A stretch of 64,000 bases of DNA, taken from NCBI GenBank assembly GCA_039621445.1, contig CP154954.1, forward strand, positions 48,897,847 through 48,961,846, in the 5' to 3' direction. How positions within the stretch are numbered: the first letter of the stretch is position 1; the number at the start of each line of letters is the position of its first letter. This document shows positions 6,001-61,600 of the stretch, piece by piece. Made by a program: the position numbers and the translations under genes. Origin of the DNA: Euglena gracilis. Lineage: Eukaryota. Under the pieces are notes generated by a model that made no database searches, was not told the DNA's origin, and worked only from the letters and a program-made list of their open reading frames with translations.

Positions 6001-9000
6001 GGTGGGAGCCGGGGAGACGTGAAGCCTGTGCGGATTGTGTGAAGGCGTGGGCTGCCTCTGAAGAAGGGCAGCCGGCGCACTGCGCTGGGCAATGGGAAGG
6101 CGGCGGGCCGCGGGGGGAAGGACGCAGTCGAAGAGGAGGAGGAGGAGGAGGAGGAGGAAGGGGGAGACGGTGACGAAGCCGCCGCGATGGACGTTCAGGG
6201 ACCCCAAAGTCAGTTGTCTGTTGGGCAGCCCCTGGCGTCCAAGAAGTGTGGCATGAGTTCGAAGCATTCTCCGCATATCTCTCCATTCCTAAATCCCGCG
6301 CTTCTGTTGGTTAGTTCAGGAACATATCCAACAGCTTTACTCGCACGTGTGATGTCGTTCTCCCGGTGGAGTGGGCTCCCTGCCTCGGACGATGCGGAGG
6401 AGAGTGAGGAAGAGGAGGAGGGAACCATTGGGCAAGCTTTCCCAGAAGGGGCGATGGACCCCGAGGATGAGGAGCTCATGCAAATGTTGGAGCATCTGGA
6501 GAGCAGCGAAGCCACGGCCTATGAGATGCACCTGAAGTCTGCAAACCTATAGGCACATGCATTATGTTGTCCTTGCAGAATAAACATGAGCACACAAGCA
6601 GGCACTGCAAGCAACAGCAGCGTACACTCACCACAAGCATAAAACGTCTGAGGGAGTTGGCTTCTGAGGAACCAGGCTTCTTTTTAAGGAAGGTCCCCCC
6701 AGGGTGGGCCCTATGAGCAGGCAGGGGGTTGATTTTCGACCCCCTGGGGGGGGTTTGTGGGAAGTGCTATAGCCCCCCCCCCCTCCGGCGAAGGCACCAG
6801 GGGATCTGCAAATGGCTATTTTCAAGGGAAATTTGATTTGGTTGGCAGTTTAAGAACTGAACTCCCCCCTGGGGGAGGCACCCCACAGGACAAAGGCACC
6901 CCCCTGCCCCCGGGTTGGAAAAAAGCCTGCGGGGAACAATATTTTGTGTTCGGGTGTGGCCCACTCCCAAGGAACCCCCCCCCCCCGCGCCAGGTGTTAC
7001 TTACAGCTAAACCGACCTAAATGTCCCCATAAATTTATGTAAACTCCACATGTCTGGGTGTGATTTTGGACTGCCTCGGGTGTCCCCCCCCCCGATTTCT
7101 CTCAACATAAAAACCAGTCCGGCCGCCGGAAGGTGTTGAGATTCACCGGCGGGGCGGGGGCGGCCCACTCGGCCGGGGCAGCGTGGAATGCGAGACCCTT
7201 TCGGGGGACCGGGCCGCGGCCTCGGCCCAACCAGAAGGCGGAGCGGGCCGCGAAGGGGCCGGCAGCGCGCCGGCGGGACGACGCGCAGGACGCGGACGCC
7301 GAGGCCGCCCTGACGGCGCTGTACGGTGAAGGGGCCAGCGCCGAGCCGGCAGGCGGGGGTGGGCTGGGGGGAGGGGAGGGGTGGGTTCGGGGCTGGACCC
7401 CCAAACCTGGGGGGGGGGTCCCAGGCCGGAGACTTGGGCATGGGCTCCGGTCCGAAACGCCAGGACACTTTTGAGGATTCCCCTGGCCGGCCCAATTAGG
7501 GGGGGGCCCACGTCGGGCTGGGTGGGTCCCACAGCAGCCCACCCACAAGTGAACCCAAGGAGCGCTTGCCGACCGGGGGGATCAATCTCCCATAGAGCAG
7601 GGGGGGGTGTTGGAGGGAGCAGCCTCCACTGGGGCATGAATTGGGACGCACGGCAGGTCGGATGCCAGGCGTCTGAGCCCTAACTGTGGGGTTCTGGGGA
7701 ATTTGGGGAAGAAGCTTCACCCAGGCTTCCTTTTAAAACCCCTGCCCCTCCCCTCCATGAATCGTGGAATTGTGGGAGCTGGTGCCATGGCCGGCGGCGG
7801 CCAGCCGCTGCCGGCCATCACACCACAGGTGGGGCCGCAGCCCCGCCTCCCACGGTAACCTGTCCGGCGGACAAAGGTCGGGGGCGGGGGGAGGGAGGGG
7901 GGTCGGCGGGCGCTGTGGGCGGCGTTTGATCCGGACGAGGACCTCGCGCTGCACGGGGAGGGCGAGGAGGACGAGGAGGACGAGGACGACGGGCCGGAGG
8001 AGGGGCCCGGGGAGGAGGCCGCCGCCCAGGCGCTGCGGGCTTGGGATTTGCAGTCTTGGTCTTCCCCCGGGTTGCTTCCCCGCCTTGATTGTGCATTTGG
8101 CTCGTTCAGGGGCAGTGTCGCTTCTAGCAACGTTCCACCACAGCCACACCTACCTCGCCGGTTGTTGTCCAGAATTCTTGCCGCCTCCGGGGCCTGTCGA
8201 GGACGAAGCCGAGGGCGGGCGAAAGGAGTCCCGCCAGATGCGGAAGCTGCGGGAGCTGCAGGAGTCGCTGGGGGAGGGCCAGGGCCGAACGGGAACAACC
8301 TGAAACCCTGTGGGTGGTGGGTTTGGGGGTCTGACCCCCAAACCCACTTAAACGGTCTTAAGGCCAAAATTTTCGCTCTCCTCCGAAAGAATCTGTCTTT
8401 GCATAGTGTTATAGTGGGTGGGGGTCTGGTTGACTCCCCACCAGGCCTTCCCGTTCAGCCCTGGGGACGGCGAGGAGGAGGAAGAGGAGGATGATGGAGA
8501 TGTATTCAAACCGGTGCGCATGTGTGACTTGGAACTTCGGCGATCCTCAATGCATTTTGAAGGGTCCACGCTCAGCGTGTAGGGATGCTATGGAGTGCCT
8601 GCCCAAGCACCTCCCCCCCCCCCCCCGCTGGGGGGTGGGGGGCCTGGTTGTGGGTTGGGGGAGGGTGCACAAAAGCATATCCTCTTTTCTTGGTGCTCGG
8701 GTGGCTTCTTGGAGTGATTCCTCAATCAGGAGCTTAGGGGGTGTAGGGTTTCGGGTGTGGGTTGGGCAGGCACCCCTGTCCGGCGACCGATCCTGTTTTC
8801 TTTACCCTGTTGGCAAGGACCCACCCGACCCTGCGTACCCCAGGCTGCCTCCCCCCCCCCCTGGGTGTGCCTGCTATGGACAGGCACCCTATAGCGCCCA
8901 CCCACCCCCTTCCCCCTGCAAATTTTTCATAATTTCTTCAATGTTTGGAATTAGACAATACAAGGGAAGGTAAACCCCCCAAATAACCTGGCGGGGCCGT

Positions 9001-58600: not shown

Positions 58601-61600
58601 AACCCCCCTAGAAGGAAAAAGCGCGCCAATAAAACCAGGTGATCGGCATGCCCACCAACCTCCGAGACATAAACCATAATGCCCCCCTATTTTGGACTCT
58701 GCGGATCCGCTGCCTCGATTTAACCCCCCCTGTGCCCGTGCCGACCACCAAAACGGGGTCCTTTAACCCCCTGGGGGTTATCAGTGGGGCAGTCCCATGG
58801 GCAGTGTTTTGAGGTGGTTATGGGACGTAATGTGCCTGGAGGTGTCCTCCGAGAAATCTCTCCATTTGGTTTCCAAGAGGTCTTTTGCGGGCCAAAGGAA
58901 CGACAACGAGCTCTCCGCCCCCCCCCCCATTTCGGCCAGGCAGGCCGGACGGCCTCGGCGCGATGGGACAGCACGAGCCGAACTTCACCGGCGCCGCCCT
59001 CCTGGTGGCCCAGCGCTTTGGCACAGAGCAGCAGCTTCGGACGATGGTGGCAGGCACGCCCTTCACCCTGGGCATCACCACCTCGGGTGGCGAGTTTGGC
59101 GGTGATGTCAAGCTGGCCAGGCGTGTTGTTTTTCTGATGCTTGTGCGTGCATGTGTGTGTATGTGGTGTGGTATGTGCGTGTGTGTGGTGTGCCTGTGTG
59201 TATATTTGTTGTTGTTTTTTTGCATAATTGGCAGTTGTTTTAGACTCTATTGCAGTTTCAATTTTTTTATTGGTACCTGGTTCTACTCCGGGTCAGGCCC
59301 AGTTCGGGGCTTTGTCTGGGGTCAGGGGTTTTTTTTTAGACTTGGACCCCTGGGGCAGCTCACCTCCAACTATTGCACTCTGGACAAGTGACGGCAAAGG
59401 AACGTTGTCCTTTTTTTTCTTTTGGAAGACTTCCTGTCATGTCTCCTGTGTTACGTACCACCTTTGTAAGGAGCTTCAAGATGTCGGACTGCAAGCACAA
59501 AGAGAATGGGTGCATAAGTAGGTTCGAATTCAAAACACGCCAGGCGGAAAGGCCCCCGGTCTTAAAAAAAAACCCCTTTCTGGGGTCCAAAGACCCGAAC
59601 CAGGCCCAACCCGGAGTCGACCTGGGGGGGGGGAGGTCAGCTTGCACCTGAGGTGGACCTCCCGGGGGGGGGGGGGCGTTAAAGACGCTGTCACCACCTT
59701 GCAGGTAACAGGCCCCCTGGTGCCAAATGGTGGTGCGTATGGAGCAAAGGGCGCCTCCGCCCCCCCCCCCCACAGGCTTCGCCGGCCAGAGGGGACGCTG
59801 GTGGCCCCCGCCCCGGCCTCCATCTTGGCGTGCGCCTCGGCTGCCGCGTCGTACGCCCTCCCCGCCCGGGCCACCGCCGCGCACTGTGGGTGTGTGGCAG
59901 GGGTTTTTTTTGAGCCGGAGGGGACCCACCCCCCGGGGAGTCCAGCCAGCACCTCCTAGCCGCGCTGCGCCTTTCCCCCCCGGGGTCCGCTGAAATCTAG
60001 TTTGGGACAGCCTGGAGAAGCTTGGCTGGACCGAAAAAAGCACAAAGCTTTTGGCACAAAACTTTGGAAAAAGGAGGTCAACAATGGCTAAAGAATGGCA
60101 GTTTTGGGTGGTTTTTGCCCCCCCCCAAATTTTGGCTTAAAAACGCCCACCCTGCTGGATTTGGGCTTTTTTTTAGGCATTTTTGGGGGGGGTACCTTCG
60201 GGTCCAGCTCCCACCCAGCCGGATCCCCCACCCTGTACCAGACCATTGCTTAACACCTGTCCCACCCCCCCCCCCCCGGGGGTGACTGACTGGTTTTTTC
60301 AGAGTGACTGGCTGGTTTTTTGGCCGTGACCCCCCTCCCCCGGGGTGGGGTAGGCCCGAAATCACCCAAAAGTGGCTGAGTGGCGAACCGGCGCCGAAGG
60401 TGCCGGAGAAAATTTTGGCCAAAAGTGGCTTTGAAAAGCCAAAAAGTGACTGGTTTTCCTGAGTGGCCGATCCCCCCGGGGGGGGGGGTAAAGTGACTGA
60501 CTGGCTTGGCCGAAAAAGTGACTGACTGGTTTTTTTCAGAGTGGAAAGTGACCCCCCTCCCGGGGGGGGGGGGTCGCTAAGCAATGGTATGCCCTGGACC
60601 CCCACTCCCCTAGGGGGGGCCGGCCAGTACCTTTTTCCAGTCGGCCTGTGGGACCCCTGGGGTCCTTACCCCCTCCTTGTCTAAGCACCCCCTTGTCAAA
60701 GCCCCCCCAGTTCTTCCCATCTTGTTCCGGTTCTTGACAAGGGGGGGTAAGAAAACCCCTGGTGTGTGGTGTGGTGCCGCCCTCGCCCTTGTCCATCGTG
60801 GTGGGGCAGGGGAGAGGGTTGCTCTGGCCCGCCTCGGCCGGGCTCGACCTGGGCGCCTCCGCGGACCCCGCCTGCTACCCGCTCTCCGACACGGTGTACT
60901 TTGTGGTCCGGCCTGTGCCGCTGTGAGGATGGGCGCCCCGTTGCCTGTTCCGCTCCCCAATGCAGGGGGCGAGGGCACTTGCCCGCTCCCTGGTGGTTAT
61001 CCACACTGGGCAAAATGATACTCTGGGATGGCTTTTGTCCAAGGAGTGCCCATGCCCACCTTTCTCCCCCTTAGTTGCACTAAGGCTTCTTGTCTGTTTA
61101 TGGCCGCTAAATTCGCTTCTGGCCCAGTTTGCTGTGCGGTGAGTGGCCAGGGACCCCTTACACCAGTGCTCTTTTGTTGCTCCGCCTGGCCGGGTGAGCA
61201 ACTCTGGTGTAATTCCAGCGCTGTAGGGACATGCACTCACCTTGTGTGGTTGGTGTGGTTCCCGTGGGTGGGTCTACACCCTTGTGCCCCAGTGCTGCTC
61301 TTGCCTCCTGCCCTCTTCCCACTTTTCTGTGTGGGGGATGCATGGTGCGGGAACAACGCCATGACTTGAATAATTCCAGTGTGGCCTCACGGTCCCGCGG
61401 CTTCGGTAAACCCGGGTTACCAAGTCTCGGCCTTAGGGCGGGTGGCGGGTGGGTAGTGTGCTGCTTTCTCCCCCTCCGTGATCGCAGGTCGCCCCTTGAC
61501 GCACCCTTGGGCTGGAGGCGGGAAACGCAGGAGACAAGGCTTATGCTGTCCCTACACCCATGAACCTCCCGTCTGGGAAACTGTCGCCAGACAAGTTAGC

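Follow-up and report, generated by a model that had tools for sequence, protein, structure and literature searches.

A 64,000-nt window of the nuclear genome of Euglena gracilis (contig CP154954.1, assembly GCA_039621445.1) contains MITEs (miniature inverted-repeat transposable elements) that share their geometry with the nonconventional introns of the genes around them. The window holds MITEs flanked by 8-bp target site duplications (TSDs) as well as introns in which a terminal helix leaves 3 nt outside at the 5′ end and 5 nt at the 3′ end. One intron is itself a MITE copy, and a weak remnant of duplicated sequence is found in the 8-nt frame flanking the introns. An earlier note on this DNA had pointed out the shared geometry and interpreted it as a candidate intron-generating system based on hAT-type elements. 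We confirm and extend the observation, and the interpretation finds partial support. Conversion of MITEs to introns and its link to the length of 8 nt are likely. The broader proposal that the introns began as transposon insertions that are cut from the RNA is supported, short of proof, and we regard it as probably correct.

Introns that are or resemble MITEs

Three genes, all on the + strand and with 48 introns in total, were placed in the window with proteins from the EukProt E. gracilis transcriptome; each of three exon translations retrieved one such protein. The proteins were mapped by tblastn and word matching, and every junction was solved by enumeration. They match the window closely, though not fully (exon blocks mostly 90–100% identical), and therefore stem from a different allele or copy. 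The lengths of the introns are secure, and the exact cuts are known only within the "sliding" caused by junction repeats and within allele differences.

The strongest new evidence is provided by two introns, one that is a full-length copy of a MITE family and one that carries a family terminal inverted repeat (TIR) at both ends. The former is intron 3 of gene 3. Its element, 27138–27385, which the earlier note listed as a MITE without recognising it as an intron, is homologous from end to end with dispersed copies at 50193–50472 and 24852–25154, as found by alignment and BLAST. The flanking exons match EG_transcript_12373 at 31/31 residues (37–67) and at 29/30 residues (69–98), and the intron is 258 nt long with its start at 27130–27136. 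It is the only clear whole-intron copy of the family in the window; one further intron has the family TIRs, and other copies are nested in introns or lie outside the mapped genes.

The further intron is intron 9 of gene 2, each end of which carries the TIR 12-mer GCTTCTTTTTAA, the two copies being inverted relative to each other. This 12-mer has five matches in the window, as compared to 0.34 expected. Besides the two intron ends, matches occur at 6676, 21151 and 7725, and those at 6676 and 21151 are ends of the MITEs at 6673 and 21148. When the element ends are placed by TIR homology (49630–50531), the intron length is that of the element plus 8 nt. For the MITE intron of gene 3 and for intron 9 of gene 2 no GT/GC-AG position is compatible with the protein.

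Likeness to MITE TIRs at 12 or more of 16 positions was found in 4 of 28 intron termini, compared to 3.1% of 2210 other CAG/CTG sites, with two of the four matching termini being the ends of intron 9, which were chosen after the match was seen. The 3′ end of gene 2 intron 1 (43840–45101) matches the TIR of the MITE at 6673 at 12/16 positions.

Cut geometry and duplicated flanks

The compatible cut positions include no GT/GC-AG pair in 41 of the 48 introns, and 7 can be GT/GC-AG introns. In 31/48 introns the ends form a helix of 5 bp or more in the N3/N5 register, with 3 + 5 = 8 nt outside. Among the 38 introns of genes 1 and 2, 9 have exactly 8 nt outside their strongest terminal helix, and any other value occurs at most three times. 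Exact CAG and CTG are found in 12 of the 25 helix-defined introns of these two genes, the rest having CGG/CCG, CAT/ATG, TGG/CCA, GGG/CCC and other pairs. Introns 45962–46596 and 48920–49586 of gene 2 have similar 5′ ends (…CATCTCTTTCGGG and …CACCTCTTTCGGT), a resemblance in sequence that may point to one more element family, with ends other than CAG.

The earlier note had listed twelve introns of the form N3-CAG...CTG-N5. Their lengths are correct in all 12 cases and the cut position is compatible with the protein in 11, the exception being 45179–45459, where the proposed cut fits 10 of 11 residues and a cut 2–4 nt downstream fits 11 of 11, which may reflect a difference between alleles. Six of the twelve belong to gene 1 (2490–4812, 6193–6387, 7333–7920, 8024–8201, 8277–8468 and 10596–11090), and the junction solver tags all of these as N3CAG..CTGN5.

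The consensus C|RNC is common to both flanks. In a hand-picked set of introns the first base after the cut is a purine in 22/22 and the third base of the downstream exon is C in 19/22. An identical consensus at both junctions is predicted by duplicated flanks; selection for splicing signals would also give it.

Flank identities in the twelve introns of the earlier note are 5, 1, 4, 4, 7, 5, 7, 1, 4, 4, 5 and 1 of 8, which reproduces the values given there (7/8 at 8277–8468 and 43840–45101, 1–5/8 elsewhere). The mean of 4.0 compares to 3.37 for mismatched pairs (P = 0.049), and of the 13 shifts compared register 0 ranks highest. A larger test covered 31 introns of the three genes in which the register was chosen objectively by the helix alone, and own pairs were compared to permuted pairs. 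Own-pair matches in the frame −8..−1 amount to 120/248 with 95.3 expected (P = 2.5e-4), and in the downstream frame 0..7 to 66 with 68.4 expected (P = 0.69). A register-free comparison at a lag equal to the intron length gave a 7/8 window in 4/48 introns as compared to 0.71 expected (P = 0.005), while 6/8 was reached by 12/48 introns with 4.35 expected. The duplication remnant around the introns is real, weak but significant, and largely confined to the 8-nt frame. The idea of the earlier note that long stems keep better flanks found no support, as flank identity shows no correlation with stem length (rho 0.05, P = 0.80).

The elements and their surroundings

Twelve MITE-like elements were tabulated in the window (Table 1). 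All start with CA and 11 with CAG, an exact CAG start is combined with a CTG end in 9, and the TIRs match at 10–16 of 16 nt. By the identity of their 8-nt flanking repeats the elements fall into three groups of four, with 8/8, 7/8 and 6/8. The ten elements of the earlier note are all present at their positions, and its flank scores (8/8 in three, 7/8 in three and 6/8 in four) were obtained again. In the duplications of the 12 elements G is found at position 1 in 6–7 cases and C at position 8 in 7–9. The target preference thus tends to GnnnnnnC, which is palindromic and lengthens the hairpin by one pair. Nine elements lie in introns of genes 1 and 2, one of these being nested in another MITE, and those at 18123–19011 and 24852–25154 lie outside the mapped exon–intron structure. 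No MITE of the 12 interrupts an exon of the three mapped genes without being the intron. Intron 4 of gene 2, the host of 46010–46249, itself has CAT...ATG ends and N3/N5 geometry.

BLAST cross-matches define a dispersed family consisting of 24852–25154, 27138–27385, 50193–50472 and a fragment at 21148, of which the first three align over their full length. The end type CAGG-N-T-rich-TTAAG is common to several MITE families.

The first, unfiltered scans for TIRs and TSDs were swamped by poly-G/C and tandem arrays, and a CAG...CTG scan with the tandem arrays masked was used instead. It scored 551 CAG...CTG stem pairs, of which six have flanks of at least 7/8 in register as compared to 0–3 in each of 14 shifted controls; 8/8 flanks occur in two pairs and in none of the 14 controls. 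Perfect 8-nt repeats adjoining inverted-repeat seeds number 25, with 22 located within a 43-bp tandem array and three outside. Perfect repeats of length 7 outside this array are only homopolymer runs and one exon-spanning pair. With lengths 7 and 8 tested, perfect repeats outside tandem arrays that are neither homopolymeric nor exon-spanning occur only at length 8.

Three candidates were not accepted as elements. The segment 59306–60705 encloses an exon of gene 2 and overlaps the MITE 59898–60761 in a non-nested manner. Its inverted repeat of 11 bp, GGGGCTTTGTC, is bordered on the outside by the 8-mer cccagttc as a perfect direct repeat, and it starts with GG, as Merlin ends do. The segment 59302–59600 is part of a longer palindrome, and in 52067–53361 the direct repeat consists of G and C only. 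A longer imperfect palindrome, 59287–59615, surrounds the MITE 59323–59578, with arms of ~29 nt and 5 mismatches by eye; it may represent the ends of an older element that was hit by this MITE. Two arrays of a self-complementary 43-bp tandem repeat, at 34734–35042 and 37085–37406, flank a 2-kb stretch that contains 200-bp units resembling 52633–52835 in intron 12 of gene 2.

The window has a base composition of 48–62% G+C, and poly-G/C runs are abundant. Ranking of the open reading frames (ORFs) of the window by G+C content at third codon positions (GC3) and entropy did not pick out the exons, and the list of long ORFs was uninformative for finding genes in this GC-rich DNA. Removal of the introns of the earlier note alone did not open a long frame, as the genes contain many introns besides these. 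The first exon of gene 2 is 97% identical to EG_transcript_328 and the exons in the retained tblastn pieces are 80–100% identical. This gene contains micro-exons of ~20–30 nt (46602–46621, 49594–49624, 57246–57269 and 57530–57559), each between introns of the nonconventional type. Long (GT)n and (TTA)n microsatellites are present between genes 1 and 3, at 16000–16403 and 20516–20712.

Table 1. Genes, introns related to MITEs and MITE-like elements in the 64,000-nt window
Feature	Positions	Strand	Description
Gene 1, Mpp10-like	2349..14246	+	EG_transcript_3775, 651 aa, PF04006; exon blocks match protein; 15 introns
Gene 3, proline-rich	26101..32406	+	EG_transcript_12373, 365 aa, no Pfam family; 10 introns
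Gene 2, PstS/PBP-like	43645..63825	+	EG_transcript_328, 1192 aa, PF12849; 23 introns mapped; overruns window end
Gene 1 intron 8	8277..8468	+	192 nt; 15-bp terminal helix; flanks GGGAGGGC/GGGACGGC, 7/8
Gene 1 intron 11	10596..11090	+	3′ terminus matches 5′ TIR of MITE 18123 at 14/16 nt
MITE copy, gene 3 intron 3	27138..27385	+	248 nt, CAGGGTTTTTTTTTAAG...CCCCTG; flanks 6/8; between two exons of gene 3
Gene 2 intron 1	43840..45101	+	1262 nt; N3-CAGGCTTC...GAAGCCTG-N5; flanks GCCTCGAG/GCATCGAG, 7/8
Gene 2 intron 9	49627..50536	+	910 nt; start slides 49625–49630; element 49630–50531; flanks GCGACAAC/GCAACAAC, 7/8
MITE	6673..6929	+	257 nt; TIR CAGGCTTCTTTTTAAG; flanks 6/8; nested in gene 1 intron 5 (6504–7229)
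MITE	18123..19011	+	889 nt; TIR CAGGGCGGTCC; TSD gttggggg, 8/8; no gene mapped here
MITE, family of 27138–27385	24852..25154	+	flanks 6/8; upstream of gene 3
CAT...ATG element	46010..46249	+	CATGGATGCA...TGCATCCATG; flanks 7/8; nested in gene 2 intron 4; absent from the earlier note
MITE, family of 27138–27385	50193..50472	+	flanks gccgagac/gtcgagac, 7/8; nested in gene 2 intron 9
MITE	51134..51571	+	438 nt; flanks aatacata/aatacatc, 7/8; nested in gene 2 intron 11
MITE	52925..53325	+	401 nt; 19-bp TIR CAGGGTTCGATATAAGGAG; TSD ggcccaac, 8/8; nested in gene 2 intron 12
Weak MITE candidate	57961..58359	+	TIR 10/16; flanks 6/8; in gene 2 intron 17
MITE	59323..59578	+	256 nt; TIR 15/16, end CTT not CTG; TSD tctggggt, 8/8; nested in gene 2 intron 18
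MITE	59898..60761	+	864 nt; TSD gtgtgtgg, 8/8, GT-rich target; in gene 2 intron 19; absent from the earlier note
MITE	60239..60591	+	flanks 7/8; end ATG; nested inside MITE 59898–60761 (gene 2 intron 19)

Origin of the introns

Several parts of this picture are already in print, namely the proposed origin from MITEs, repeats that resemble TSDs, a newly gained intron with an 8-nt repeat (2016) and a tested N3/N5 rule (2025); the papers are cited here for the portions that deal with these points. A MITE-like origin of euglenid nonconventional introns was proposed on the basis of their inverted repeats in a 2013 paper, which also states that no transposable elements had been identified in euglenids by then (PMC3935182). 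The TIR CAG/CTG and "TSD-like" repeats at these introns have been reviewed, as has their excision as full-length circles (Mob DNA 2024, PMC11282704). "Eight nucleotide direct repeats" were described at a gapC intron that was found in one E. agilis strain only, for which the authors invoke break repair (2016, PMC4770533). The genome-wide study of E. agilis by Nomura et al. reports that nonconventional introns are ~70% of the introns and that 84% of introns are "slidable" via direct repeats (PNAS 2025, PMC12501133). In the same work, knock-in into an exon defined 5′-N3CDG-/-CH′GN5-6|R as enough for precise excision. Splicing was lost when a single base was added to or removed from the 3-nt donor spacer; the 5-nt acceptor spacer allowed +1, and introns of entirely synthetic sequence were also spliced. 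The reporter assay suggested in the earlier note has thereby largely been done with natural and synthetic introns (PMC12501133).

The introns of the window agree with those described in the literature (Milanowski et al. 2013/2016; PMC11282704; PMC12501133) in the pairing of +4..+6 with −8..−6, as CAG with CTG in part of the introns here, the non-GT-AG borders, the purine at the start of the downstream exon, the direct repeats at their junctions and the proposed MITE-like origin. The portions cited differ in that they contain no named MITE family, no TSD length rule and no argument that 3 + 5 equals the TSD, whereas here individual introns are connected with MITE families that have 8-bp TSDs. 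A literature search, with subscription journals outside its scope, gave no paper that equates 3 + 5 with an 8-bp TSD, names hAT, or matches MITE families to introns in euglenids.

Comparable systems exist outside the euglenids. Giroux et al. reportedly found in 1994 that the maize hAT element Ds is spliced from transcripts. Ds is said to be similar to the present case as a hAT-type element with CAGGG ends, an 8-bp TSD and intron-like behaviour, but to differ in its use of cryptic spliceosomal sites, with a message that is usually changed and no dedicated measuring rule. Transposon-derived introners, from which the element and one TSD copy are removed by splicing, are said to have been described by Huff et al. 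in 2016. The introners of Micromonas, Aureococcus and dinoflagellates are also non-autonomous DNA transposons with TIR and TSD in an exon, of which the element and one TSD copy are spliced with the frame kept (PMC11282704). They differ in being removed by the spliceosome at GT/GC...AG borders that derive in part from a 3-nt TSD, whereas removal here would be hairpin-guided and measured from the TIR stem, with an 8-bp TSD and non-GT-AG borders.

In the mechanism that we propose, MITEs with inverted ends CAG(G)...(C)CTG duplicate 8 bp of target upon insertion. In a MITE that is transcribed within a gene, the two ends could pair into a hairpin, which would be recognised by a non-spliceosomal removal machinery that cuts 3 nt before CAG and 5 nt after CTG. 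Since 3 + 5 equals the duplication length, the RNA would lose the element plus one duplication copy's worth of sequence and the frame that existed before insertion would be restored. Restoration would depend on the sum of 8 alone and not on the 3/5 split. Both the ends and the duplication would decay with time, leaving ordinary nonconventional introns, and later MITEs may accumulate within existing introns. We infer that the length of the duplication determined the positions of the cuts, and the elements may still be active at present.

The scarless removal inferred in the earlier note follows from the published rule if the duplication is intact and its sixth base is a purine. Various observations weigh against the proposed mechanism. 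The only intron that is clearly a MITE copy, intron 3 of gene 3, is 10 nt longer than the element (258 and 248 nt), and not 8 nt. An 8-bp duplication can be reconciled with it only when two additional 5′ bases are counted as part of the element, a post hoc reading in which the flanks become GGCCCCGC/GCCCCCGC (7/8) and the empty site deduced from the junction sequences is identical to the mRNA. Alternatively, and also after the fact, an N3/N5 cut before G fits when the helix is extended outward by one pair. Of the 38 introns of genes 1 and 2, 9 belong to neither the helix-defined nor the GT/GC-AG class. For two introns, 45181–45461 and 29913–30953, the protein favours N1/N7 cuts over N3/N5: they have CAG...CTG ends and a length of span + 8, yet with N3/N5 cuts a Thr codon (ACN) would stand in place of the Ala (GCN) of the protein. 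The cause is either that the alleles differ (A/G) or that the alternative register is genuine. TIR sharing with MITEs, expected by the earlier note, holds for intron 3 of gene 3 and intron 9 of gene 2 but not for most termini, since 24 of the 28 intron ends stay below 12/16 likeness to the MITE ends of this window.

The flanks raise similar doubts. None of the 48 introns has 8/8 flanks, 29/31 score at most 6/8, and of the mean of 3.87 about 3.1 comes from the consensus common to all introns. The upstream frame −16..−9 also shows a mild excess (77 matches, 67.1 expected, P = 0.064, n = 31). Some repeats are longer than 8 nt, with gene 2 intron 9 matching at 12/15 positions. MITEs with perfect TSDs all lie within introns or outside mapped genes, and none was seen in an exon. 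Finally, the intron positions rest on proteins of a non-identical allele or copy.

The transposase involved may belong to a different superfamily than the earlier note assumed. Elements of the hAT superfamily such as Ac/Ds and hobo typically combine CAG(G/A)G ends with 8-bp TSDs, their short TIRs start with (C/T)A(G/A), and their target consensus is nTnnnnAn. The MITEs share the 8-bp TSD and the (C/T)A(G/A) starts. The nTnnnnAn target was not seen in their flanks, where T is found at position 2 in 2–3/12 and A at position 7 in 5/12. A Pfam scan of 10 ORFs located at 14.3–43.5 kb, out of 78 ORFs of at least 120 aa in the window, gave no match, so neither a hAT nor a Merlin transposase domain was seen in these ORFs. 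The hAT assignment is thus unproven, and the same model could operate with Merlin or a further superfamily whose duplications are 8 bp long. From the draft genome of E. gracilis itself two families of Merlin have been described that both have 8-bp TSDs, in the portion cited without a link to introns (PMC8101967). The MITEs agree with Merlin in having 8–9-bp TSDs, but the TIRs of Merlin have a conserved terminal 5′-GG (PMC8101967), whereas the termini here are CAG/CTG with the repeat directly outside. We consider a non-hAT superfamily possible but less likely than not.

A more fundamental objection is coincidence. The introns could stem from double-strand-break repair or from old introns, the junction repeats being microhomology or splicing consensus and the CAG...CTG ends merely shared. 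Break repair was indeed proposed by the authors who described the 8-nt repeat (PMC4770533), and conventional introns of E. agilis are also flanked by direct repeats (PMC12501133). In the present data 95.3 of the 120 flank matches are explained by the shared consensus, and the lack of correlation between stem length and flank identity points in the same direction. Against coincidence stand an intron that is homologous over its full length to dispersed MITE copies, another with the family TIR at both ends, and the location of the own-pair excess in the 8-nt frame. Four elements have perfect 8-bp repeats just outside their inverted ends, which is the signature of insertion by a transposase. These features make a coincidental resemblance quite improbable. 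The direction may also be reversed, in that MITEs are mobilised introns of which the circular RNA was copied to DNA and re-inserted. The release of nonconventional introns as full-length circles (PMC11282704) and the location of most copies in transcribed regions would agree with this. However, a re-inserted intron would bring its 3 + 5 spacer along, whereas the termini of the copies are precisely CAG and CTG and the duplication lies beyond them. Perfect TIRs and TSDs are the mark of cut-and-paste transposition, and the nesting of 60239–60591 in 59898–60761 fits insertion of DNA. We therefore judge an origin of the MITEs from introns to be very improbable, more so than coincidence, and retain the origin of introns from MITEs.

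A stronger form of this proposal is put forward tentatively, as possible rather than probable. In this form the 3 + 5 cut rule would exist because introns derive chiefly from a transposon family with duplications of 8 bp, and the machinery would measure from the terminal hairpin and delete one duplication. Insertions in exons would be silent at the RNA level, and for that reason the transposons could have flooded the genes. The system would be active today and, in the boldest version, the cutting enzyme would itself derive from the biology of the transposon.

The origin of euglenid nonconventional introns has been debated since the 1990s, and in the part cited here the genome-wide study of 2025 called it "unclear" (PMC12501133). 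Named introns are now tied to concrete MITE families with 8-bp TSDs, and the identity of the duplication length with the 3 + 5 spacer rule turns the loose "MITE-like" idea into a quantitative model. Such a model would explain the shared Y|R junction consensus, the "slidable" nature of most introns and the tolerance of a genome to massive invasion of its exons.

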